Source: Verrucomicrobiota bacterium
GTDB taxonomy: Bacteria > Verrucomicrobiota > Verrucomicrobiia > Verrucomicrobiales > DEV007
Reading direction: 5' to 3'
Length of the DNA: 64,000 bases
Assembly: GCA_045046875.1 (NCBI GenBank)
Contig: JASFYY010000049.1
Location: forward strand, 1 to 64,000
Below the pieces are notes generated by a model. The model saw nothing but the letters and a program-made list of their open reading frames with translations, was not told where the DNA came from and searched no databases. Below are positions 4,699-21,786 of this stretch, one piece after another (positions within the stretch are counted from its first letter, which is position 1; every line of letters starts with the position of its first letter). The translations under genes were made by a program, and so were the position numbers.

Positions 4699-5961
4699 TT
4701 AGAGCGATTCGGGTTGTTGCAGTAATTCGGAGATTCTCCCTAACAAACGTCCGGCGGCTCCTCCATCGAGGATTCGGTGGTCGAAACTGAGCGTCATGAC
4801 CGCCTCTGTGGCTGGCAGAAATTTTTCCTGCTGCTCATCCCATACCGGCCATTTGATACCGCGTCCAAGACCGAGTACTAGATTTTGCTCGGGCAGCGGA
4901 ATCGGGGTGGCCCAGACAATGCCGAATACACCAAAATTGGTGACGGTGGCGATACCGGGTCCCCGTTTGTTATTGTCAGCGGGTAAGCGTCTTTGACGAG
5001 CTTGTTCGACCAAGGCACTGTATTCGCCAATAAGTTCGTTGATGGGTTTTTTGTCCACATCACGAATGACAGGAACCAAAACCCCGTCGTCCACTTCCAC
5101 TGCAAAACCGATGTCGATGGCATCAGGGTGAATGATTTGTTTACCGACCAGACGTCCGGCAACGGCGGTGTTTTCTGCGAGGGCAATAGCGAGGGCACGG
5201 ATAATATAAAGAGTGGGGCCGGGTTTTGGTTGTACCGTTTTCCGGTGTTCGAGCAGGGTGTCCAGACGCACGGGTGAACCAACGGTTGCCAGGGGGCGGG
5301 TCCAGGAGCGGCGCATGGAGTCGGCTACGGCGATGCGCATCGGTGAGGCATCGGTGCGGTGTTTTGCATCGAGATCGGAAATGAAGCGTTCAAAGTCGTC
5401 AATGGTCACTCGTCCGGCGGCACCGCTGCCGGCGATGCCGGAGAGGTCGGCGGCGTGTAGGCCGAGCTCCTCCATGCGTGCTTTCATGCGAGGGGAGAGG
5501 TAAGTGGCTCCGGTGGCGGTGGCGGGAACCGGCAGGCCTTCGATCGTCGGCTGCACGGTGAGTGGGCGCTCGGGTTCGGTGACTGCTGGATTTTCGTCAG
5601 CGGTTGAAGCGGGCTGGTTTGGGGAGCGGTCGGAGACGGGCGGGGTTTGCCGAGTGGTGGCAGGGCTTTCGTTTTGCTCCTTCGAGTCGTCGAGCAGGCC
5701 GAGTTGTTTGGCGTTTTCTTCGGAAATCTCTAACCAACCCAAGGTGGCTCCCACTAGATAACTTTCATCAATGAGCACTTCGATCTTGTTGATCTTTCCT
5801 TCCACTGGTGTGGTGACGCCCATGATGGCTTTGTTGGTTTCTACTTGAAAAACCTCCTGATCAGCGGTCACTTCCTGACCGATTTTGATGTCGATTTCGA
5901 CAATCACCGCCTCGGCGATCGATTCACCGAGTTGGGGCATTTGAATGGGAATAAGAGCCAT
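4699..5961 (-). CDS. 2-oxoacid dehydrogenase E2 (dihydrolipoamide acyltransferase)
   Basis: Lipoyl domain MPQLGES...ETNKA, peripheral subunit-binding motif GSGAAGRVT, catalytic SFDHRILDG. Confidence 0.92.
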   Translation of the reverse strand: MALIPIQMPQLGESIAEAVIVEIDIKIGQEVTADQEVFQVETNKAIMGVTTPVEGKINKIEVLIDESYLVGATLGWLEISEENAKQLGLLDDSKEQNESPATTRQTPPVSDRSPNQPASTADENPAVTEPERPLTVQPTIEGLPVPATATGATYLSPRMKARMEELGLHAADLSGIAGSGAAGRVTIDDFERFISDLDAKHRTDASPMRIAVADSMRRSWTRPLATVGSPVRLDTLLEHRKTVQPKPGPTLYIIRALAIALAENTAVAGRLVGKQIIHPDAIDIGFAVEVDDGVLVPVIRDVDKKPINELIGEYSALVEQARQRRLPADNNKRGPGIATVTNFGVFGIVWATPIPLPEQNLVLGLGRGIKWPVWDEQQEKFLPATEAVMTLSFDHRILDGGAAGRLLGRISELLQQPESL

Positions 5962-6009
5962 GGGAATGAAGGTGCTAAGGGTGCTTGTGCTTGTGCTTAT
6001 TCTATTTAT

Positions 6010-6975
6010 TTAATAACGCAATAAATCACGTAAAGAAGCGGCGATGGATTGAGAAGCCGGGCGGTGGGTTTTCCACAAATCGGGATGGAAGGGGATGGGA
6101 GTGTCTTTTGCGTTCAAGCGTTTGGGAGGGGCGTCGAGCAGATGGAATCCTTCGCTGGTGACTCGTGAAATCACTTCAGCGTTCACTCCTCCCCAAGGGA
6201 AAGCTTCACTGACACACAACAGACGTCCGGTTCGGGCGACCGAAGCGAGAATGGTATCGGTGTCGATGGGTTTGACCGAGCGCAGATCCACAATCTCGAT
6301 ATCCCAGCCTTCTTCCGCGAGTTCATCGGCGGCGCGCAGGGCTTCGTGAACCATGGCGCTGTAGGTGACGACGGTGGCGTGTTTGCCGGCTCGCGCGATG
6401 CGCGCTTTGCCGACTGGCAGATTTTGACCTGGCAACTGGTCGGCCTTCAGATGGTAGTAGAGGTATTTGTGCTCACAAAATACCACCGGGTCGTCGATGG
6501 CGATGGCTTCGAGCAGCATCGAATAAGCGTCCTCCACCGTGGCCGGCGTCAGCACGATCAATCCGGGATATTGGGCATAGATGGCCTCCATGCTTTGGGA
6601 GTGAAAAGGTCCACCGCCTTCGGTGCCGCCGGAAGGCAGGCGCACGGTGATCGGGCAGGGGATGCCGGTGCGCCAGAACTGGGTGGCGGCTTGATTACAA
6701 ATCTGGTTGATGGCGATAGTCGAGAAATCAGCGAACTGCATTTCCAGTACCGGCCGCATGCCTTCGGCGGTGGCGCCGACGGCACTGCCGACCATGGCGT
6801 CCTCACTGATGGGGGCGTCGATGACGCGCCCTGGGTATTTAGCTGCCAGGTTTTTGGTGGCCTTGAAAGCCCCTCCAAAAGAGCCGACATCCTGGCCATA
6901 AATATAGACGGATTCGTCTTCACCGAGAGCCCGGTCCTGGGCTGCCTGAATGGCTTCGAGGTAAGTGATGCTCAT
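6010..6975 (-). CDS. 2-oxoacid dehydrogenase E1 beta subunit
   Basis: GQDVGSFGGAF, DAPISE, EMQFADF, GGPFHSQ, DLRSVKP. Start moved to MSITYLEA (ATG 6975), which overlaps the E1 alpha stop. Confidence 0.93.
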   Translation of the reverse strand: MSITYLEAIQAAQDRALGEDESVYIYGQDVGSFGGAFKATKNLAAKYPGRVIDAPISEDAMVGSAVGATAEGMRPVLEMQFADFSTIAINQICNQAATQFWRTGIPCPITVRLPSGGTEGGGPFHSQSMEAIYAQYPGLIVLTPATVEDAYSMLLEAIAIDDPVVFCEHKYLYYHLKADQLPGQNLPVGKARIARAGKHATVVTYSAMVHEALRAADELAEEGWDIEIVDLRSVKPIDTDTILASVARTGRLLCVSEAFPWGGVNAEVISRVTSEGFHLLDAPPKRLNAKDTPIPFHPDLWKTHRPASQSIAASLRDLLRY

Positions 6976-8021
6976 TGCCCGGGGCTCCCTTCTATTAATC
7001 CTTCGGCCAAGCGGGTTGTGGCGAGTGCTTGCCAGGTTTCTTGAAAGGGATCCGGTCCCGATTCCCGCTGGGCACAGAGAGTGGCTTCTTCGACTTGCTG
7101 TTGGATCTCGGTGGTCCACTGTTCGATTTCATCGGGTGTGGACCAGCCTGAATCGATCAGATGTTGGCGTGCCACTTCGATGCAGTCGCGTCCAAAAGGG
7201 GCTTGTTTTTTTTCTTCGGAAATGTAGGCGGCGTCATCGTGTTCACCGTGCCCGCATAATCGCAGTAAGTGGCCGACGACCAGTTGGGGGCCATGGCCAG
7301 CCCGTGCTCTGGCGGTGGCTTTGGCGAAGGTCTCCAGGCAAAGGCTGAGATCCGTGCCGTCCACACTGTGGCCTTCGATGCCATAACCGACTGCTCGATC
7401 AACCAGATCGGCGCAGGCGAATTGACGTTCGCTGGGAGTGGAATAGGCAAATTGATTATCTGCCACGGCGATCACCAGCGGAAGTTTTTCGATGGCCGCT
7501 TGATTGAGCGCTTCGTGAAAAGCTCCGGTGGAGGTGGCTCCGTCCCCGAGGCAGACTCCGCCGACGACATCTTTTTGGCCGCGGAAGCGTTTGCCGATCA
7601 AGCGACCGCTGACGACCGAAATGTGACTGCCCAGATGACTGATCATCGGGATCATGCCTTTGAGGATGTCACCGCGGTGGACGTTGCCGTCGCGGGCACG
7701 CATCGGACCTTCGACCGAGCCCAGATAGGTCCTGGCGGCATCGATGAGAGCTTCGCCAAAAGCCAGGCGGCCGGCCTGATCGCGAATCAATGGGCCGTAA
7801 ACATCACCCCTACTTTGATCCAAAGCCAATGCAAGCCCGACGCTGAAAGCTTCCTGCCCTTTGCCCATGAAAACTCCACCGACGATTTTTCCTGCCCGGT
7901 AGAGGCTGGCAGTGCGTTCCTCAAAAATCCGAGCCAGCAGCATGTAACGAAAAGCCGCTTGATAGTGGCTTTCGGATTCGCAAAGTGGTTCTTTACCTTC
8001 TTTAATGTTGGCCTCTGCCAT
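6972..8021 (-). CDS. 2-oxoacid dehydrogenase E1 alpha subunit (TPP-dependent)
   Basis: GKGQEA, TPP motif GDGATSTGAFHEALN...DNQFAYS, RLCGHGEHD. Start moved to MAEANIK (ATG 8021). Confidence 0.93.
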   Translation of the reverse strand: MAEANIKEGKEPLCESESHYQAAFRYMLLARIFEERTASLYRAGKIVGGVFMGKGQEAFSVGLALALDQSRGDVYGPLIRDQAGRLAFGEALIDAARTYLGSVEGPMRARDGNVHRGDILKGMIPMISHLGSHISVVSGRLIGKRFRGQKDVVGGVCLGDGATSTGAFHEALNQAAIEKLPLVIAVADNQFAYSTPSERQFACADLVDRAVGYGIEGHSVDGTDLSLCLETFAKATARARAGHGPQLVVGHLLRLCGHGEHDDAAYISEEKKQAPFGRDCIEVARQHLIDSGWSTPDEIEQWTTEIQQQVEEATLCAQRESGPDPFQETWQALATTRLAEGLIEGSPGQ

Positions 8022-8118
8022 GCTGCTTGTTTTGACCTGCGAACTTAAACGTGGGCAGCCTGTTGAATCAACGGAATTTTCAGCAAAGCGGTTCCTTTTT
8101 TTTGTCGCTATTTGCTGT

Positions 8119-11100
8119 TCACACAGTGGCTTCTTCTTTTGTGCGATCCTTTTGCTCCTTCTCTTTGGAAGATTTGAATTGCATGCCCAGCGTTTTGGAT
8201 ACGCCGAACTCTTCCATCGAGACGCCATACATCACATCGGCGCGGCTCATGGTGCGTTTGCTGTGGGTGACGATGATGAACTGGCTGCTGCCGATGAAAC
8301 GGTCGAGCACTTTGAGGAAACGGCTGATGTTCGATTCATCCAGTGGAGCGTCCAGCTCGTCAAGCACACAGAAAGGCGAAGGTTTGACCATGTAGATGGC
8401 GAATAACAAAGCCACCGCAGTCATCGAGCGTTCTCCCCCGGACAACAGGGAGATGGTCTGGAGTTTTTTGCCCGGCGGTTTGGCGATGATGTCGATGCCA
8501 CTTTCCAGCGGGTCGCCTTCATCGGCGAGGATCAGGTCGGCCTTGGCGGTTTTGCCAAAAAGCTCGATGAACATTTCGCCGAAGTTTTTGCGGATTTGCT
8601 CGAAGGTATCGGCAAACATCTTTTTGGTGTCGCGGTTGATCTTGGCGATCACCGTCAGCAGTTCTTCCTTGGCGTTGATCAGGTCGTCGTGTTGTTCCTG
8701 GAGGAAATTGTGGCGTTCCTGTAATTCGTCAAATTCATCAATGGCGTCCAGGTTGACCGGGCCGATGGATTCGAGTTTTCCGCGCAGGAAGATCACTACT
8801 TCTTCGACAAAATCCCAGTCGGGCTCGGAAGCATCAGGCACTTCTACGGAGTCGGTGTCGATATCCGCATCAATATCGACGTCGATTTCGACCTCAGTGT
8901 CAGCGATGACTTCGTTTTCGTCGTTATTTTCCCCGTCGGTTTCGCCCGCAGCAGCGGTGCTGCGTTTGGCGTTGCGGTTCATCGCTTTGCGTTGGTCTTC
9001 GATCGCATTGAGCAGCGCATGGCTGTCGGGTTCAAAATGTTCGATTTCGATTTGGTAACGCTCACGAGTGGTCTGTTCCAGATTTTCGATGCGCAGATCG
9101 ATCTGGGTCGAGGAGATTTCTTCCTTGCTGCGCTGCTCGTTCATCTGATGCGCTTGTTTGCGCTTTTCAGTGAGGGTTTCTTCGTTTTTATCAATGGCCG
9201 CGCGTTTCTCAGAACGGTCGTTGCGGATGGTTTCGAGCGAGACAGTCAGGCGTTGAGCCTCTTCGGTGGCATTTTTGATTTTGTCTTGCAGGCCGTCATT
9301 GTCACTGGTGGCGGTTTTGATGCGATTGCTGTATCCGCTGATTTCGTTTTTGCGTCGGTCGAGCAATTCGCGCAGCTCGTTCAAGCGGCTGGTCATCGGT
9401 GAGCGTTGATTCTCCACCGCTTCGCGTGCCCGTTTTTCAACAGCAAGTCCGGTGCGGACTTCGTTGAGCGATTCTGCGGCATCCGTTTCGCGGGTCTCGG
9501 CTAGTTGCAGGCGGTTTTTCAGGTCGTCGAGTTCAGTTGCGAAGTTAGCGAGTTTTTCCGCAGTGTCTTCTTTTTCCTTGGTGGAATTCTGCAGTTCCTC
9601 GTCGATTTCATCCTGGCGCTGAGCGACTTCGGTTTGCTCCCATTTCAGTGCCTGTAATTTGTTCTCTACCTGCTGCTGCTCCCGCTGCATCATGGTCAGT
9701 TGTCCTTCGAGGGTGGAAAACTGAACCTGTTTTTGTTGCAGTTTTTCCCGTGCGCTTTGCACGCTGATTTCGAGGTTGGAGACGTTTTGGGTCAGGGTGG
9801 AAACTTGTGCTTCAGCATTGGTCAGTTCTTTTTCCAATTGCTTGGTGACGGTGCTGAGCTCACGGATATCCGTTTCCCTTCGCAGCAGCGAGCTGCCTTC
9901 TTCCGAGCCGGAACCACCGGTGATGATGCCTTCGCAAGTGATGAATTCCCCTGTTAAGGTAGCAAAAGAGGTGTTTTCGCCCATTTCATCCCGCAGGCGC
10001 AGGGCGGTCGCCAGGTCGGGCACGATCAGCACGTCGCTAAGCAGTCGATCCACCAGTCCGCTGATTTTGCCGTCGCATTTGATCCGGTCGAGAGCCCAGG
10101 CGGTGGCGCCGTCGGGCAGTGAAAGGATCTGGCGGTCGTCGGCTGACGATGATGCGTTTTCCGCGACCAGTGAGGCTTGCCCCAGTTGGCCTTTTTTGAG
10201 CGACTCGATCATGCTCTCGGCGACCAGGGTGTCGGCGACGATGATGGTCTGCAGATGATTGCCCAGTGCGGCTTCGAGAGCCGGGATGTATTCGGAGTCG
10301 ACTTCGAAAAATGAAGCCAGCGCTCCGCGCACTGATGATTGGAAAAGCTCGGGTTGATCCAGACCTTTGAGCACCGCCTGGGTGCCTTTGGCGAGACCTT
10401 CTCCTTCGGCGACCAGTTGGCGCAGCACTTCCAGTCGGGATACTTTTTCCGAATGAACACGGTGCAGGTCGGCCAGTTGTTGGCGCAGCTCTTCGAGTTC
10501 GCTGCGTGACTTCTGGTAGTCGCGGTCGGCGCTCTGGCGTTGCTGGTCGAGTTCCTCGATGGCGTTTTTGTGTTCGGTCACCCCGCTGGTGAGGGTTTCG
10601 ATTTCGGCGCTTTTGCTTTGCTCTTCTTTTTGCAGGCGTTGGATCTCTTCGTCCAACTGGATAAAACGTTGCTGATCGGCTGCCAGATGACGGGTATTGT
10701 TTTCGATCCGGGCTTCGAGGGAAGCCAGTTTGCTTTCCAGGGAATTGCGCGTGTCGCGGGTTTTGGAAAGCGTTTCGGAAAGGGTGTGTCGTTCGGTGCG
10801 GGCTTGATTGGCGGTCTGCTGGTATTCGGTTAATTGAAGCTCTTGTTTGGCGATTTTTTCATCGATCGCTTCGAGCATGCTGTTGGTATCCTCCAAGTCC
10901 AGCTCCTGCTGGCTTAGCTTGTCGGTGGTGTTTTCTATATCAGCGGTATTTTGTTCGATCAGGGTGCTGAGTTCCTTGGCTCGTTCGGCATTGAACTCGA
11001 TTCGGCTCTGTGCCGAATGCACGGCATTTTCCTGTTCGGCGACCGATCTCTGGGTTTCGCCGATTTTGGATTCGATGCTTTGGTATTCGTCGCGGGCTGA

Positions 11101-11910
11101 GGTGAGTCCCTCCTGCCCTTGCTCGATTTCGGTCTCGAGGGTTGTTTGCGCTTCGCGCAGCGAGCGGATGGAGTTGTCGAGTTCGGAACGCTCGGCCTGG
11201 TGCTCACGCCAGGTGCGGTGACTGTAATGCAGGTCGAGCACCTTGAGGTCGGTGTGCAGGGTTTTGAAGCGGCGGGCTTTGCCGGCCTGACGTTGCAGCG
11301 AGCGCATTTGGCGTTCGACCTCGCCGATGATGTCGGCGAGACGAACCAGATTGGCTTCGGTGTAGTCGAGTTTGCGCAGCGCTTCTTTTTTCTGTGCTTT
11401 GAATTTGGTGATGCCTGCGGCTTCTTCAAAAACCGCCCGGCGGTCTTCGGGTTTGGAACTCAGCAGCATGTCGATTTTGCCCTGCTCCATGATCGAGTAG
11501 GAGGTGCGGCCGATACCGGTGTCCATCAGCAACTCGCTGATGTCTTTCAGACGACAGGGGCGTTTGTTGAGCAGGTATTCGCTTTTGCCATCGCGGAAAA
11601 CGCGGCGGCCGATCGAAACTTCGTCGAAGCCGGTGGATAACTGCTTTTCGCATCCTGAGAGGGTGAGGAAAACCTCAGCCATGCCGACCGGCTGGCGTTT
11701 TTCGGTGCCATTAAAGATAACGTCCGCCATCTCTCCGCCGCGCAGGGCTTTGGCCGAAGTCTCACCTAACACCCAGCGGATCGCATCAACGATGTTCGAT
11801 TTGCCACAGCCGTTGGGTCCGACGATGCCGGTCACCCCTTCGTGGAATTCGAGTTTGGTTTTGTCGGCAAAGGATTTGAAGCCGTGAATGTCGAGAGATT
11901 TGAGGATCAT
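8119..11910 (-). CDS. smc: Chromosome segregation protein SMC
   Basis: GFKSF, Walker A GPNGCGKSN, long coiled coils around a hinge, signature LLSGGE, Walker B LDELDAPLD. Confidence 0.97.
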   Translation of the reverse strand: MILKSLDIHGFKSFADKTKLEFHEGVTGIVGPNGCGKSNIVDAIRWVLGETSAKALRGGEMADVIFNGTEKRQPVGMAEVFLTLSGCEKQLSTGFDEVSIGRRVFRDGKSEYLLNKRPCRLKDISELLMDTGIGRTSYSIMEQGKIDMLLSSKPEDRRAVFEEAAGITKFKAQKKEALRKLDYTEANLVRLADIIGEVERQMRSLQRQAGKARRFKTLHTDLKVLDLHYSHRTWREHQAERSELDNSIRSLREAQTTLETEIEQGQEGLTSARDEYQSIESKIGETQRSVAEQENAVHSAQSRIEFNAERAKELSTLIEQNTADIENTTDKLSQQELDLEDTNSMLEAIDEKIAKQELQLTEYQQTANQARTERHTLSETLSKTRDTRNSLESKLASLEARIENNTRHLAADQQRFIQLDEEIQRLQKEEQSKSAEIETLTSGVTEHKNAIEELDQQRQSADRDYQKSRSELEELRQQLADLHRVHSEKVSRLEVLRQLVAEGEGLAKGTQAVLKGLDQPELFQSSVRGALASFFEVDSEYIPALEAALGNHLQTIIVADTLVAESMIESLKKGQLGQASLVAENASSSADDRQILSLPDGATAWALDRIKCDGKISGLVDRLLSDVLIVPDLATALRLRDEMGENTSFATLTGEFITCEGIITGGSGSEEGSSLLRRETDIRELSTVTKQLEKELTNAEAQVSTLTQNVSNLEISVQSAREKLQQKQVQFSTLEGQLTMMQREQQQVENKLQALKWEQTEVAQRQDEIDEELQNSTKEKEDTAEKLANFATELDDLKNRLQLAETRETDAAESLNEVRTGLAVEKRAREAVENQRSPMTSRLNELRELLDRRKNEISGYSNRIKTATSDNDGLQDKIKNATEEAQRLTVSLETIRNDRSEKRAAIDKNEETLTEKRKQAHQMNEQRSKEEISSTQIDLRIENLEQTTRERYQIEIEHFEPDSHALLNAIEDQRKAMNRNAKRSTAAAGETDGENNDENEVIADTEVEIDVDIDADIDTDSVEVPDASEPDWDFVEEVVIFLRGKLESIGPVNLDAIDEFDELQERHNFLQEQHDDLINAKEELLTVIAKINRDTKKMFADTFEQIRKNFGEMFIELFGKTAKADLILADEGDPLESGIDIIAKPPGKKLQTISLLSGGERSMTAVALLFAIYMVKPSPFCVLDELDAPLDESNISRFLKVLDRFIGSSQFIIVTHSKRTMSRADVMYGVSMEEFGVSKTLGMQFKSSKEKEQKDRTKEEATV

Positions 11911-12022
11911 AGTGATTTAAAAGGCAGTTTGGAGAGTGGCAGCAAGCTTTAAAACGCGATTATCGGAGAGTTTTTAAACTATCACAAGCGATAATCCATC
12001 GCACTGCTGAGACTCGTCGGTG

Positions 12023-12051
12023 AGAATGGCCACAAGATGTAGTGGTGTCAA
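12023..12051 (-). promoter_or_regulatory. Predicted sigma70 promoter of smc (-35 TTGACA at 12051-12046, 17-bp spacer, -10 CATTCT at 12028-12023)
   Basis: Perfect -35 hexamer with canonical spacing, about 110 bp upstream of the smc ATG. Confidence 0.65.
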
Positions 12052-12077
12052 TATTAAAATGCCACAAGATGTAGTTT
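12030..12077. promoter_or_regulatory. Tandem NrdR-box-like operators (CCACAAGATGTAGTGG 12030-12045; CCACAAGATGTAGTTT 12062-12077)
   Basis: Exact 15-bp direct repeat GCCACAAGATGTAGT at 12029 and 12061 (32-bp period); each copy resembles the NrdR consensus acaCwAtATaTwGtg. Confidence 0.75.
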
Positions 12078-12193
12078 TTTGGCGGTTTTTCATCAAGCTT
12101 GCCTTCATCCCTACTTGCCAAAACAAATAGAATCCGCCAAGGTCTGGACGGGGGCTGAATTTAGGTCGAGTGGAGTTTTAACTGTAGAATTTT

Positions 12194-13282
12194 ATGGCTG
12201 AAAAAATTGTGATTGCTTGTGGCGGAACCGGGGGGCATTTGTTTCCTGGCATTGCGGTGGCGGAGGTCTGTCAGCGACGTGGGCATGAGATTCTGTTGTT
12301 GATTTCGGAGAAGAAGATCGACTCGCTGGCGGTGGAGGGGTACGAGCATCTGAATTTTGAGCGGGTGCGTTCGGTGCCGATGCCGAAGCTGTTGTCTCTG
12401 GCAATGGTGCCTTTTGCTTTCCGCTCTTTGGCGGGTTTGTGGCGATGTCGGGGGATTTTGAAAAGATTCGATGCAAGCGTGGTGATGGGGATGGGTGGTT
12501 TCACTTCGACGATTCCGTTGATGGCGGGCCGGCTGCGTTCTTGCCGGACTTTGGTGCATGAGTCGAATGCGATTCCGGGTCGGGCTAATCGGCTCAATGC
12601 TAAGTTCAGCGATTTGGTGTTGCTGGGTTTAGAAGCTTGCGCGGATCATTTTGATGAGGGCAAAACCCAAGTGGTGGGCACGCCTTTACGTCCTGAGTTG
12701 CACCAGCATCCGCAGCGAGCCCAGGCGCGCCAGCATTTTGCTTTGGAGAAGGATAAAAAAACGGTGCTGGTGATGGGCGGCAGTCAGGGCGCGCGCGGGA
12801 TCAATATGATGGTCAGTCAGGCTTTGCCGCAGTATGTCAAGGCAGGGGTGCAGTTGCTGCATATTGCAGGGGTGGACGATGTGGAGATGGTGGAGGAGGC
12901 GTATGCTGAGGTGGATGGAGCGGGTTGTGTGGTGAAGTTTTGTTCTGAGATGGGCTTGGCGTATGCGGCGGCGGATGTGGCGCTGTGCCGTTCGGGGGCA
13001 TCGAGTTTGGCGGAGTTGGCGGCGTTTGGGCTACCTTCGGTGTTGATTCCCTATCCTTATGCGGCGGAGGATCATCAGACGAAAAATGCGCAGATTTATG
13101 AAAGAGGGGGTGCGGCTTTGTTGTATCAACAGGGGGATCTGGATGCGGGGAAACTGGCGCAGGTGCTGATAGATTTGCTTGATGATGACGAAAGGCTTGC
13201 GAAGATGGCAGATAAGATGAATAGCTTTGCGATGATGGATGCTGCAGAGAGGGTGGCTGATGCGGTGGAAGGGGGAGATTGA
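12194..13282 (+). CDS. murG: Undecaprenyl-PP-MurNAc-pentapeptide N-acetylglucosaminyltransferase
   Basis: GGTGGHLFP, HESNAIPG, GGSQGA, RSGASSLAE, DHQTKNA. Confidence 0.96.
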   Translation: MAEKIVIACGGTGGHLFPGIAVAEVCQRRGHEILLLISEKKIDSLAVEGYEHLNFERVRSVPMPKLLSLAMVPFAFRSLAGLWRCRGILKRFDASVVMGMGGFTSTIPLMAGRLRSCRTLVHESNAIPGRANRLNAKFSDLVLLGLEACADHFDEGKTQVVGTPLRPELHQHPQRAQARQHFALEKDKKTVLVMGGSQGARGINMMVSQALPQYVKAGVQLLHIAGVDDVEMVEEAYAEVDGAGCVVKFCSEMGLAYAAADVALCRSGASSLAELAAFGLPSVLIPYPYAAEDHQTKNAQIYERGGAALLYQQGDLDAGKLAQVLIDLLDDDERLAKMADKMNSFAMMDAAERVADAVEGGD

Positions 13283-13314
13283 AAATTTAGTTGGAAGGGT
13301 TATTTAATTTGAAG

Positions 13315-15615
13315 ATGGATTGGTCAGAGGCATTTGCGCAGGGGAAGGATGAGCCTTTGAGGGTTCATTTGATTGGGGTGGCGGGTTCGGGTATGAGCGG
13401 GCTGGCTTCTTTGTTCATGGCTTTGGGGCATCGGGTGAGTGGCTCGGACCGGGTGTCGTCGGTGGAGACGCAGCGTTTGCAGGGGGCGGGTTTGATTTTT
13501 TCCTGTCCACATACGGAGGAGGTGATCGAGGGGGTGGATGTGGTGGTGCGTTCGTCGGCGATTCGGGCGGGCAATGCGGCTTATGATGCGACTTTGGCGG
13601 CGGGTCTGCCGATGTTGAAGCGGGCCGAGGCGCTGGCGGCGATCATGAATGGGAGCAAGGGCATTGTGGTGGCGGGGACTCATGGCAAGACGACGACTTC
13701 GGCGATGTTGTCGCACCTTTTGCGGGTGGGAGGGCTGCGGCCTTCGCATTATGTGGGGGCGGAGATTCCGATTTTGGGAACCAATGCGTATTGGGAGCCG
13801 GAGAGTGAGTGGTTTGTGGCGGAGGGGGATGAGAGTGATGGTACGTTGGTGAATTTTTTCCCAGCCTGCTCGATTTTGCTCAATGTGGAGGAGGAGCATT
13901 TGGATTTTTATGATGGCATTGAGGCCATATTGGCGGTTTTTAGGCAGTTGCTGGATCAGACTTCGCAGTGTGTGGTGTACTGTGCGGAGGATGCGCATGC
14001 GACGGCTTTGTGTGAGGGGCGTGAGCGGGTGGTGAGTTATGGTTGGGGGAGGTCTTGTGATTATTCAGCCGAAAACCTGAGGGTCTCAGGTGGGGGGACG
14101 GCTTTTGATTGGTATCGTGGGGGGGAGTTGGTGGGGGAGCTGCGTTTGAATATTCCCGGCAAGCACAACGTTTTGAATGCCTTGGCGGCAGCGGCTCAGG
14201 CGAGTGAACTGGGGGTGTCGTTTTCGGCGGTGGCCGAGGCTTTGCAGACTTTCCAGGGAGCGCGGCGGCGTTTTGAAGTGAAACATGAATCGTCGGATTT
14301 TGTGGTGGTGGATGATTATGGCCATCATCCGACGGAGATCGCGGCGACGATTGCGGCGGCGAGGGAGCGGGTGCGTGGGCGTTTGGTGTGTGTGTTCCAG
14401 CCGCACCGTTATTCGCGTACCCAGTTGCTGCGGGATGAGTTTGGCAAGGCTTTTGATGGGGTGGATGTGCTGTGTGTGGCGGATATTTATCCTGCCAGTG
14501 AACGTCCGATCGAGGGCGTCAGTGGCGAGACGATTGTTGAGGCGGTGAGGGAGTTGGGGCAGGTGGATACGGTGATTTCCTGTCCGGATTTGAAAAATAT
14601 CCATCAGGTGGTGGGCGGGGATTTGATCGAGGGGGATTTGATTTTGAGTCTGGGGGCGGGAGATGTGCATGAAGTCACCAGCCGTTTGAGTGAGGATATT
14701 CAAATTTTGGAGACTTTGCGTGGGGTTTTGGATGAAGCGGAAGGGCGGGTGAAGCTGTATGAATCGATGAGTCGTCATACCACGATTAAAATCGGCGGGC
14801 CGGCGCAGTTCTGGGTGGAGCCGACTTCGGTGGAGGGGTTTGCTCGCATTGTGGCGTATTGTCATGAGCAGGAATTGCCGCTGACGGTGGTGGGGCGCGG
14901 ATCTAATTTATTGGTGGGTGACGGGGGGATTGTTGGGGTGGTGATGCATCCGGTGACCGGGGTGTTCGCAAAGCTCGAGGTGAAGGGGGATGAAATTCAT
15001 GCAGGGGTGGGGATTCGGCTCAAAAGGTTAACCGCGGCGGCGCAATCGGCGGGCCTGGGTGGTTTGGAGTGGATGGAGGGCATTCCGGGAAATGTGGGTG
15101 GGGCGATTCGCATGAATGCGGGAGCGATGGGGGCAGAAACTTTCGACCGGGTGGTCTGCGTGAGCTATGTGGATCAGCAGGGCGAGATACGTAAAAAGAC
15201 GGTGCAAGAGATTGAACATCAATATCGTAATGTGCCCGAGTTCTCGCAGAACTATGTGGTGTCGGTGATTTTCCGGGGCCAGCCGGAAGATACGGTATTA
15301 GTGGCTGAAAAAATCGAGCTGTCGAAGCAAAAGCGTAAGGATGGTCAACCGGTGGCGGCGAGTGCGGGCTGTATTTTTAAAAATACCGACGAGGTGCCGG
15401 CGGGCAAGCTGGTCGATGAGCTGGGTTACAAAAACCGACGAGTGGGGCAGGCCAGGGTTTCGGAGGTGCATGGCAATTTTATTGTTAATGATGGCGGTGC
15501 GAAAGCGGCGGATGTGTTGCAGTTGATCGAGCAGATTCAATTGGCGGCTAGGGAGCAGCGCGGTATTGAGTTGGAAACCGAGGTTCAGATCCTCGGCCAG
15601 CAGGAACCGGTTTGA
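13315..15615 (+). CDS. murC-murB: Fused UDP-N-acetylmuramate--L-alanine ligase (MurC) / UDP-N-acetylenolpyruvoylglucosamine reductase (MurB)
   Basis: MurC: IGVAGSGMSGLA, GTHGKTTT, EGDESDG, DDYGHHPTE, FQPHRYSR. MurB: HTTIKIGG, GRGSNLL, GIPGNVGGAIRMNAG, SAGCIFKN, HGNFIVN. One open frame; alternative TTG start at 13291. Confidence 0.95.
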   Translation: MDWSEAFAQGKDEPLRVHLIGVAGSGMSGLASLFMALGHRVSGSDRVSSVETQRLQGAGLIFSCPHTEEVIEGVDVVVRSSAIRAGNAAYDATLAAGLPMLKRAEALAAIMNGSKGIVVAGTHGKTTTSAMLSHLLRVGGLRPSHYVGAEIPILGTNAYWEPESEWFVAEGDESDGTLVNFFPACSILLNVEEEHLDFYDGIEAILAVFRQLLDQTSQCVVYCAEDAHATALCEGRERVVSYGWGRSCDYSAENLRVSGGGTAFDWYRGGELVGELRLNIPGKHNVLNALAAAAQASELGVSFSAVAEALQTFQGARRRFEVKHESSDFVVVDDYGHHPTEIAATIAAARERVRGRLVCVFQPHRYSRTQLLRDEFGKAFDGVDVLCVADIYPASERPIEGVSGETIVEAVRELGQVDTVISCPDLKNIHQVVGGDLIEGDLILSLGAGDVHEVTSRLSEDIQILETLRGVLDEAEGRVKLYESMSRHTTIKIGGPAQFWVEPTSVEGFARIVAYCHEQELPLTVVGRGSNLLVGDGGIVGVVMHPVTGVFAKLEVKGDEIHAGVGIRLKRLTAAAQSAGLGGLEWMEGIPGNVGGAIRMNAGAMGAETFDRVVCVSYVDQQGEIRKKTVQEIEHQYRNVPEFSQNYVVSVIFRGQPEDTVLVAEKIELSKQKRKDGQPVAASAGCIFKNTDEVPAGKLVDELGYKNRRVGQARVSEVHGNFIVNDGGAKAADVLQLIEQIQLAAREQRGIELETEVQILGQQEPV

Positions 15616-19002: not shown

Positions 19003-21786
19003 ATGATAGAATATAACGTGAGTGAACAAACGGAGATTCCAGAGGCTAACGGCTTCTCCGTCAAAATAATCGGAGTGGGTGGATCCGGGGCCAATGTGCT
19101 GGATCGAATGGCTCTCGAAGGCAGTGAGGCCGGAGATCTGCTGACGATCAACACCGATGTTCGGGCACTCTCGACTTCTGTATCGAGCAATAAAATTCAA
19201 CTGGGTAAAGAATTGCTGATGGGAATGGGCGCTGGTGGTGATCCTGAGCTGGGACGTGAGGCATCCTTGGAAGCTGAAGGTGAGATCCGCGATGCGGTGC
19301 GCGGCTACAGCATGGTTTTTGTTTGTGTCGGACTAGGCGGGGGAACGGGATCGGGTGCTGCGCCCGAGGTTTGCCGTATCGCCCGTGAAGAAGGCGCTTT
19401 TCTGGTGGCCTTCACTTCCTTGCCTTTTGGTTTTGAGGGAAAACGACGCATGGAGCAGGCGACCGACGCGCTCAAGGGGATCGGCGAATATGCCAATGCG
19501 GTGGTGACTTTTGAAAATGACCGCATGGGTGAGTTGCTGGTGGCCAAGGAGGGCATTCAGCAGGCTTTTGCCGCTGCGGATAAACTGATCAGTCAGAGTA
19601 TTCTTGCGACAACCAACATGGTGACTCAGCCGGGTATCATCCGTCTGGGCATGGATGACTTGCTGACGGCATTGCGCAACCGCGATTCCCGTTGTCTGTT
19701 TGGCTTCGGTTTGGCTAAAGGTGATAACCGCGCACAGGAAGCTCTGGCGCAGGCCTTGAAGAGTCCGTTGATTGATAAAACTTACTTGATGGATTCGGCT
19801 GAGAATGTGTTGATTCACATTTCCGGAGGCGATTCGTTGACGCTTTATGAAGTGGAGATCCTTATGGGCGAACTGGCCAAACATGTCAGTGATCAGGCTC
19901 AGATTCTATTCGGGGTGGGCACTGATAAAAAGCTAGGCAACAGTTTGGCGGTGACTTTGATCTCTTCGGTGTCGAGTGAAAAAATCGGCCCGAGCGGGAG
20001 CAGAAGAAAAAAGGAAGAGGATAAAAAAAAAGCCCTGACGAAGGATGATTCGGGCAGTGATGACGATGGAGGCGATGATGATGGAGGAGGGGGAGGTTCG
20101 GCAAAGCCGGGAAAGTCATCAGCTAAGGTAGAGACAAAGGGGAGCGCTGGCGCCGCCCCGCCTCCGCCGGATGATTTGGAGTTGAATGCGGAGCCTGGAG
20201 CAGAGCTTCAGGTGGAGGACGATACCGATGGGGCGGAAGAATTAACGGACTCGGGTGTATCTGAAGAAATAGAAAAAACTGAAACAGTTGTCGGCGACGA
20301 CGAAGAATCAGCAGAAATCTCATCAGCGGCTACTGCGGAAGCCGCTGATGAGATTTCTGCTGAGGAAGAGGTCGCTGAGGAAGAGGTCGCTGAGGAAGAG
20401 GTCGCTGAGGAAGAGGTCGCTGAGGAAGAGGAGCCTGGCCAGGACGAGGAGGAGATCGACGAAATTGATCCAGAGCCTGAATTGGAACAAGAGGTGTCGG
20501 CAGATCAGGAGTCGTTCAACGATGCCAACGATGAGCAAGAGGATGAAATCATCGCAGAAGAAGCTGAAGAGGTCGTCGAAGAGGAAGAAGTGGAGAGTGG
20601 GGTTGAACTTAAGGTGGATGCGGAGGACTTGCCATCTGGGTTGGAGGAAGAAATTTCGGAAATTGAAGCAGAACTCAAGAGCATCAATCAGCAAATTGAA
20701 GAATTTGATGAGGCGGAAGAGTCGGCTGCGGAGACCATTGTTGAATCCGCGCAGGATTTGGATGATGAGCCAGAAGCGGCAGCGCCTGAGCCCGAGCCTG
20801 AAACTGATCCAGTTGATGAGGTAGAAGCGCCTGATTTGATCGAGGAAGAAAGCGAGGATTCAGTTTCGGCGATAGAAGAAATTGATGAAGTCGAAGAGGA
20901 ACCTGCGGTGGATGAGGTGCCGGAAGAAGCGGTGCCTGGTCAAGGCATGGCCAGCCTGTTAGGTTTGACTCCAGTGAATGTGGACGAAGGCTCCGATGAG
21001 GTTGCCTTGCCGACGGATGAACCGCTTGATGAGCAAGAAGACCTCGAACCTGAGGTTGAAGCGGACGTTGAACCTGAAGAAGCTGCAGCGGAGGTATCGC
21101 CATTTGAAATAGATGACGAAGAAGAGGATGACGAGGGGGCGGCAGAAGTAGCGGAGGAGCTTGCTGTTTCGATTGAAAAGGAGCAGCAGGTTGATGAACC
21201 GGAGGAGGAAGTTCCAGCGCAACAAGAGCAGAAGAAGCCGTCCTTGCCTATGTCAATTCGCGATTTGGCGAAAAAGAGCATGCAAGATCAGCAAGCGGGT
21301 CAGGCTGAGGATGAGTTGATCGTGCACGCTTTGGATGAGGTTGATGGCGATGACGAGGCGGATGAAGATGAGGAGGCGAGCATTTTTGATGTGGGTGATG
21401 AGGAAGAAGGAGATGAGGAAAAGGTGAACGTGGCCGATGTGATTCTTTCTGCGGCAGCAGGTGACGATGGGGATCAAGAGATCACCCTGAGTCGGGTGGA
21501 TGCGCCCGAAGACGAAGACGACGATGAGGAGGAGCTTGAAGAAGAGCTTGCGGATTCTGCTGAAGAGCAGACCGATGAAGATATTTCCCAATCCGATCCG
21601 GAGGATTTCCCCGATTTGGGAAAGGGTGAAAGCGGTGATGAAAAACCAGGTAAAAGCGGCCCTCGGAAACAAGGGGTGTTGGAGCTTGAACCGACGGCAA
21701 AAGGTCGTTTTGCTAAAACCGATCCGACGATCGTGGAAGGGCAGGATTTGGATGTGCCCACTTTTTTGCGTGCTCGTAGGGACTAA
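19003..21786 (+). CDS. ftsZ: Cell division protein FtsZ with a very long acidic linker (927 aa)
   Basis: GVGGSGAN, INTD, GAGGDPELG, tubulin motif GGGTGSG, PFGFEG; C-terminal core peptide DLDVPTFLR. Confidence 0.95.
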   Translation: MIEYNVSEQTEIPEANGFSVKIIGVGGSGANVLDRMALEGSEAGDLLTINTDVRALSTSVSSNKIQLGKELLMGMGAGGDPELGREASLEAEGEIRDAVRGYSMVFVCVGLGGGTGSGAAPEVCRIAREEGAFLVAFTSLPFGFEGKRRMEQATDALKGIGEYANAVVTFENDRMGELLVAKEGIQQAFAAADKLISQSILATTNMVTQPGIIRLGMDDLLTALRNRDSRCLFGFGLAKGDNRAQEALAQALKSPLIDKTYLMDSAENVLIHISGGDSLTLYEVEILMGELAKHVSDQAQILFGVGTDKKLGNSLAVTLISSVSSEKIGPSGSRRKKEEDKKKALTKDDSGSDDDGGDDDGGGGGSAKPGKSSAKVETKGSAGAAPPPPDDLELNAEPGAELQVEDDTDGAEELTDSGVSEEIEKTETVVGDDEESAEISSAATAEAADEISAEEEVAEEEVAEEEVAEEEVAEEEEPGQDEEEIDEIDPEPELEQEVSADQESFNDANDEQEDEIIAEEAEEVVEEEEVESGVELKVDAEDLPSGLEEEISEIEAELKSINQQIEEFDEAEESAAETIVESAQDLDDEPEAAAPEPEPETDPVDEVEAPDLIEEESEDSVSAIEEIDEVEEEPAVDEVPEEAVPGQGMASLLGLTPVNVDEGSDEVALPTDEPLDEQEDLEPEVEADVEPEEAAAEVSPFEIDDEEEDDEGAAEVAEELAVSIEKEQQVDEPEEEVPAQQEQKKPSLPMSIRDLAKKSMQDQQAGQAEDELIVHALDEVDGDDEADEDEEASIFDVGDEEEGDEEKVNVADVILSAAAGDDGDQEITLSRVDAPEDEDDDEEELEEELADSAEEQTDEDISQSDPEDFPDLGKGESGDEKPGKSGPRKQGVLELEPTAKGRFAKTDPTIVEGQDLDVPTFLRARRD
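20359..20431 (+). repeat. In-frame 15-bp tandem repeat GCTGAGGAAGAGGTC (4 perfect copies plus 13 nt) encoding AEEEV repeats
   Basis: Read directly from the ftsZ linker sequence. Confidence 0.95.

Follow-up and report, generated by a model that had tools for sequence, protein, structure and literature searches.

We consider it probable that smc in this Verrucomicrobiota genome is controlled by a paired NrdR-type operator lying over its predicted promoter, that this promoter is a likely captured copy of the promoter of nrdR, and that NrdR loaded with dATP and ATP would repress smc together with the ribonucleotide reductases. The window is the whole 64-kb stretch of DNA that was analysed, and it is part of a genome of 5.6 Mb (G000). 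The genes and promoter elements concerned are the following.

8119..11910, minus strand: smc, the predicted regulated gene, 1263 aa, SMC_prok_B (TIGR02168, 1033.5 bits against a cut-off of 567.35)
11959..11987, minus strand: second weak promoter-like site in the smc leader, outside the operator (9/12; 1 found against 0.6 expected, which is chance level)
12023..12028, minus strand: predicted -10 hexamer CATTCT, 3/6 to consensus with A2 and T6 kept, in line with aligned nrdR promoters
12030..12045, no strand: promoter-proximal NrdR box filling the -35/-10 spacer, 0 core mismatches, 22.7 bits (matrix built without smc boxes)
12046..12051, minus strand: predicted -35 hexamer TTGACA, abutting the proximal box
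12062..12077, no strand: promoter-distal NrdR box, which precedes the -35 on the smc strand, 0 core mismatches, 19.8 bits with the same matrix
12194..13282, plus strand: murG, first gene of murG-murC/B-ddl-ftsQ-like-ftsA-ftsZ, the divergent neighbour and probably not the target

The first-pass annotation had described an exact 15-bp direct repeat with a period of 32, one box inside the spacer of a minus-strand TTGACA/CATTCT promoter, a second box upstream of the -35, and about 120 bp from the boxes to both start codons. All of this was recovered from the sequence. The repeat occupies 12029-12043 and 12061-12075, and the bases beyond it differ at both ends. In 1000 dinucleotide shuffles of the 283-bp smc/murG intergenic region the longest direct repeat was 11 bp. 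Both 16-bp boxes are near-palindromic, are separated by 16 bp and match 8 of 8 core positions of the NrdR box consensus given as acaCwAtATaTwGtg (PMC4009431). Read along the smc strand, the distal box is followed after 10 nt by TTGACA, which abuts the proximal box; CATTCT comes 1 nt after that box, with 17 nt between the hexamers. The box pair overlaps the predicted -35/-10 elements, where a generic promoter scanner made no call, the -10 being below its threshold. From the boxes it is 119 nt to the smc start codon and 116 nt to that of murG. Elsewhere within the 64-kb window there was no paired site of comparable strength, and an Rfam scan for small RNAs gave no match at E up to 1.

The 400 bp upstream of smc were then compared in an order-level set (50 genomes out of 53 whose smc match was strong, leaving out G009, G020 and G038) and in a phylum set (40 of 82 smc matches, spread over families). 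Since kin are not independent, the counts are descriptive. Box pairs precede smc in 28/50 order-level genomes and in 47/80 named loci, two sets that overlap, and in 0/1300 shuffles; the period was 31-33 in 71 of 75 boxed smc regions. In the phylum sample, pairs were detected in 1/19 other-order genomes, in 7/20 other-class genomes belonging to six families, and in the one genome of the same order. The pair was absent before smc in 22/50 order-level, 18/19 other-order and 13/20 other-class genomes. In several negatives smc stands directly behind another ORF, and for this reason some promoters perhaps lie beyond the 400 bp. The gene nrdR was found in 60/61 relatives (the one miss is 73% complete) and in 40/40 phylum genomes, which rules out loss of nrdR as the cause of box loss. 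Because the pair is often missing although all 40 genomes of the phylum sample encode NrdR, the NrdR-smc link appears dispensable. Conservation before smc orthologues, which the first reading had named as a check, is present but patchy: it is seen in the order and in other classes, with a single positive among the other orders. The predicted NrdR-smc link is old, widespread and often lost. Of 30 relatives, 28 have a box pair before nrdB. Among named smc loci, the closest belong to Verrucomicrobiales genomes. In genus g31, which has small genomes (G037, G044, G048, G056, G059 and others), the query used detected no smc in 14/14 genomes, although NrdR is encoded in the 6/6 that were tested.

At most other boxed smc promoters the boxes are placed differently. 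A -35-like TTG follows box 2 by 16 nt in 38 of 73 unique loci and by 17 nt in 7 more (45/73 together), and a -10-like hexamer lies 16-18 nt past the TTG in 26 plus 6 of 75. A minor TTG peak occurs one turn closer, and weaker peaks at -37, -32 and on the opposite strand lie inside boxes. In this common layout the operator is wholly upstream; the boxes would centre near -60 and -92, box 2 ending near -52. This arrangement is unlike that of the nrdB and nrdR operators. The nrdB operators overlap the promoter, with a -35-like element 8-9 nt before box 1 in 25/28 and the promoter downstream in only 1/28.

Class I activators typically bind fixed-phase upstream sites near -61 and -92. NrdR might therefore act on smc with a lineage-dependent sign, activating it in the common layout and, after promoter capture, repressing it here. 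The fixed spacing past box 2 and the contrast with nrdB fit such a reading, as does the activation of topA by NrdR reported for Pseudomonas aeruginosa (PMC4409342). We regard it as unlikely. Upstream NrdR boxes have a precedent in a reductase operon, S. pneumoniae nrdHEF (PMC12051234), the topA effect was absent by RNA-seq in the account of bioRxiv 2025.03.28.645925, and a change of sign is less parsimonious. With box 2 ending in the alpha-CTD zone, occlusion or bending can explain the spacing. For the common layout, repression through the alpha-CTD zone is plausible, but the fixed phase would also be compatible with activation.

The origin of the smc promoter in the present genome was analysed by comparison with nrdR, and three further features were located on the smc strand.

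11971..12004, minus strand: part of the smc leader that is likely what remains, in decayed form, of the first ~11 codons of nrdR (anchored alignment score 29, 0/150 shuffles)
11997..12079, minus strand: tract with homology to the promoter and first codons of nrdR (blastn against G000:C37:69261-69344)
12007..12027, minus strand: nrdR-leader motif of the type TCTCA-N4-YGAGTCKCA, present upstream of nrdR in 10 genomes, whereas at smc only G000, G001, G003 and G005 have it

The tract is 82% identical to the nrdR promoter over 84 bp (E 3.8e-16), into the nrdR start codon, and this is the only significant second match to it in the genome. A TTGAC-type hexamer abuts the proximal box, at the same position as here, in 29 of 40 boxed nrdR promoters. 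At smc the layout occurs in 4 of 37 boxed promoters from the G-genomes (the same four genomes) and, among 47 named loci, in one, L083, which is almost the same as G005; the remaining 79 of the 84 boxed smc rows lack it. Over the 22 nt after the proximal box, 17 positions are identical to four nrdR promoters, against at most 9 for smc promoters outside the four-genome clade. Alignment of the nrdR coding start over the next 40 nt was equalled in 0/150 shuffles for G000 and G005 and in 3-13/150 for G001, and was not significant for G003. A scan of 134 family genomes gave 36 that match the tract and only four, again G000, G001, G003 and G005, with two matches; of 26 other tract loci that were checked, 25 lie before nrdR and one ends at a contig edge. 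In a tree of five proteins from 21 genomes the four two-copy genomes form a clade (support 98/99), with the congeners G002 and G004, whose smc genes have no boxes, outside it. The boxes are nearly invariant across the four clade species despite diverged leaders.

These comparisons suggest that the smc promoter is likely a captured copy of the own promoter of nrdR. Copying would have gone from nrdR to smc, judging by the wider spread of the TTGAC-abutting layout at nrdR. Much of the identity falls within functional elements (boxes, hexamers and leader motif), and a comparable scaffold is seen at the box-less smc promoters of G002 and G004, where another palindrome is paired around the -35. The resemblance could also have arisen convergently or by gene conversion, with NrdR and the protein binding the TCTCA motif as the two regulators in common, or through an accidental and neutral event. 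This is improbable, because the identity reaches the asymmetric start of box 1, the leader and, in G000 and G005, the nrdR start codons, and because the layout is typical of nrdR and missing from nearly all other boxed smc promoters. Neutrality is disfavoured by the near-invariance of the boxes.

The box-less smc promoters (L085-L102, G002/L007, G004/L008, G006/L016 and G035/L014) carry a different conserved palindrome, WTWTCA-N4-TGAKAW, here called X. It is located just downstream of the -10, and in G002 and G004 it occurs as a pair around the -35. The alternation of X and NrdR boxes likely reflects a regulator swap. In the smc leader of the window there is one weak match:

11977..11996, no strand: X match of 16.1 bits, rank 14 of 40 genome matches

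A genome scan with X gave no coherent regulon, and the exact X pattern outside smc in five genomes matched at or inside unrelated genes. Of 30 family genomes, 14 have an X-like site of at least 13 bits ~200-214 nt before a conserved MarR-like regulator gene (G000:C21:8703, L306; orthologues L339-L368). This gene was detected in 60/61 relatives, and its product is a candidate X-binding protein. The tree is compatible with replacement of either a box-less or an older boxed promoter; the box-less congeners and the residual X-like motif in the leader favour a regain, in which promoter capture in this clade likely re-made NrdR control. A broader reading, to which we give an even chance, is that SMC supply is coupled throughout Verrucomicrobiota to NrdR as dNTP sensor, under selection strong enough for the link to be rebuilt, with an upstream operator at a fixed helical phase in most lineages that was lost or replaced here and regained through the nrdR promoter copy.

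The genes around the operator were considered as possible targets. The products of murG, murC-murB, ddl and ftsA pass their NCBIfam cut-offs, and that of ftsZ is slightly below its own. A single 774-aa ORF (13291-15615) encodes a MurC-MurB fusion, and in FtsZ (19003-21786; 927 aa) the GTPase domain is followed by a C-terminal extension of ~580 aa that is acidic and of low complexity. The first-pass annotation had suggested that the operator also gates the divergent murG-ftsZ operon. The murG start is only 116 nt from the site, and NrdR is described as bending DNA sharply (PMC12051234). The suggestion was not borne out, and we now hold it to be very unlikely. A pair precedes murG in 2 of 30 genomes, in both of which smc is the divergent neighbour, and of 157 smc loci, 3 have murG as the gene next upstream (G000, G005 and L083), all from this species pair. 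The close congeners G001 and G003 retain the boxes at smc, where murG is not adjacent. Moreover, the best murG promoter candidate found by eye (12115-12143) begins 37 nt beyond the distal box.

Among 81 boxed smc loci with a callable upstream neighbour, the neighbours fell into 49 protein clusters, on either strand. The genes 3' of smc, taken from 20 loci with the smc end located in 18, are 2-oxoacid dehydrogenase-like in part of the family and variable elsewhere; inspected by eye, the downstream genes of these 20 loci included no recognised nrd or reductase gene. With 49 neighbour clusters and variable genes downstream in these loci, the idea that a conserved gene on either side of the operator, and not smc, is the real target is rejected. 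On these counts, the predicted operator travels with smc and the link to division is incidental synteny. Genes of the 2-oxoacid dehydrogenase E1-alpha, E1-beta and E2-like type (4702-8228) are located close behind smc in the window, and likewise in G001, G003, G017, G027 and G030. They may share the smc transcript. The unit under the operator is smc followed by these genes and contains no reductase, the reductases being on other contigs. In flanks of 1.2-2.5 kb, no nrdR adjoined smc at any of the Verrucomicrobiota smc loci examined.

The genome encodes an intact NrdR (TIGR00244, 190 bits), whose CxxC, RRRR and ATP-cone align with solved NrdR; its absence would have counted against the first reading. 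The genes nrdB, nrdA, nrdD and nrdG were also identified. A scan of the 5.6 Mb with the literature core gave eight pairs with at most one mismatch, and the only two with none are at nrdR and smc. A third such pair is found before nrdDG, and a further pair before nrdB-nrdA. A position matrix was trained on 30 boxes from the upstream regions of nrdR, nrdD and nrdB, none of them from smc, and pairs were called at a summed score of 14 bits and a period of 29-35. Six of 2394 long-ORF upstream regions passed: those of nrdB, nrdD, smc, murG, the gene divergent to nrdR, and one marginal case at 14.7. The murG pass is the smc site and the pass of the divergent gene is the nrdR site. The passes come down to four sites and the marginal one, and the smc pair has its only counterparts before nrdR, nrdDG and nrdBA. 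The assignment to NrdR comes from sequence, and sites of another protein or chance repeats are an explanation that we practically discount, as the motif is the genome's own reductase-operator motif at the canonical period. With nrdR in the genome, the same pair at nrdR, nrdDG and nrdBA, and conservation at smc whatever the neighbour, the earlier proposal of an NrdR-type operator for smc is supported at the level of prediction.

The class I reductase operon (L304, G000:C8:30099-34560) is ordered nrdB then nrdA, and NrdA (~1100 aa) has an N-terminal extension ahead of the matched region. The gene nrdR has its own box pair (L001, G000:C37:69263-69311) and a very short leader, and such pairs are common in the order. 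Among genomes with both regions, 39/78 keep the pair before nrdR, a count that is partly circular as nrdR boxes trained the matrix. The nrdR pairs of G110 (L228) and G113 (L230) have a period of 29 rather than 31-33. The gene scpA is on another contig, on which no pair was detected.

The operator resembles those of E. coli nrdAB, nrdHIEF and nrdDG and of P. aeruginosa, Listeria and Streptococcus in its 16-bp boxes, its 16-bp spacer (three turns), its predicted overlap with the core promoter and the presence of an encoded NrdR. It differs from these reductase operators in its target, smc. From E. coli and P. aeruginosa data, in which pairs were seen at reductase operons only, it was proposed that the paired-box mechanism is limited to reductases, while dnaA and topA were assigned single boxes (bioRxiv 2025.03.28.645925). 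The sites before topA (Pseudomonas) and dnaA (Shewanella) likewise precede genes of chromosome metabolism, but they are single boxes with disputed regulation, whereas smc has a full pair conserved across classes. Motif matches can mislead, as at the predicted P. aeruginosa topA box, where a reporter effect (PMC4409342) stands against no RNA-seq change. In S. coelicolor nrdR is co-transcribed with nrdJ (PMC4409342), and the nrdRJ boxes (PMC12051234) form a pair over the promoter driving nrdR, as at nrdR here; unlike that case, nrdR is here apart from the nrd genes and still has a pair. For Proteobacteria, PMC5343134 describes NrdR as never found autoregulated. Promoter reuse, including a citation of the E. 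coli citT capture, is described in PMC3575422, where a regulated promoter is likewise duplicated before an unrelated gene. In the present case the donor is the regulator's own promoter, and relatives of the recipient already carry sites of that regulator in another layout. The 20-row NrdR ChIP list given for Waddlia (PMC4989314) contains no smc, but also no nrd gene, and its top Z is 1.4; it is too weak to count against smc. Literature on NrdR with smc, segregation, Verrucomicrobia, Planctomycetes or Akkermansia gave no report of NrdR-smc control, with the 2005 NrdR-box paper and the RegPrecise tables outside its coverage.

In other species, according to PMC12051234, a tetramer of NrdR carrying both dATP and ATP binds paired boxes when the spacer is 15-17 bp and kinks the DNA; with ATP alone NrdR binds poorly. 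When DNA precursors are plentiful, a dATP/ATP-loaded NrdR tetramer would thus occupy the box pair and repress smc, RNA polymerase being excluded by NrdR bound at the proximal box in the -35/-10 spacer. As replication drains dATP, smc would be released together with nrdBA, nrdDG and nrdR, and the purpose may be to match SMC supply to replication. The smc start site, the binding of NrdR in this organism and the direction of copying from nrdR to smc are steps that we infer. Repression of smc may be partial, given the weak -10 and the second, weak promoter-like site situated downstream of the operator. Raising Smc-ScpAB four- to fivefold in B. subtilis is described as hampering chromosome organisation (PMC8357415), and harm from excess SMC is, by analogy, a possible reason to meter it.

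NrdR control by paired boxes has so far been described only for ribonucleotide reductase operons, and smc would be a new kind of target and a counterexample to the view that such pairs control reductases only. Likely new as well, from the comparisons above, are an smc promoter copied from that of nrdR and a separate upstream operator geometry elsewhere at smc. The operator would give bacterial SMC an input at the level of transcription; in B. subtilis, the amount of SMC matters for how the chromosome is folded (PMC8357415). The likely regain by promoter capture would be evolutionary evidence that the coupling of NrdR and smc is useful, and the two smc layouts allow one to ask directly whether NrdR can act from a site upstream of a promoter, and whether it then represses or activates. 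If true, NrdR would be a replication-phase regulator of chromosome organisation, beyond the reductases.
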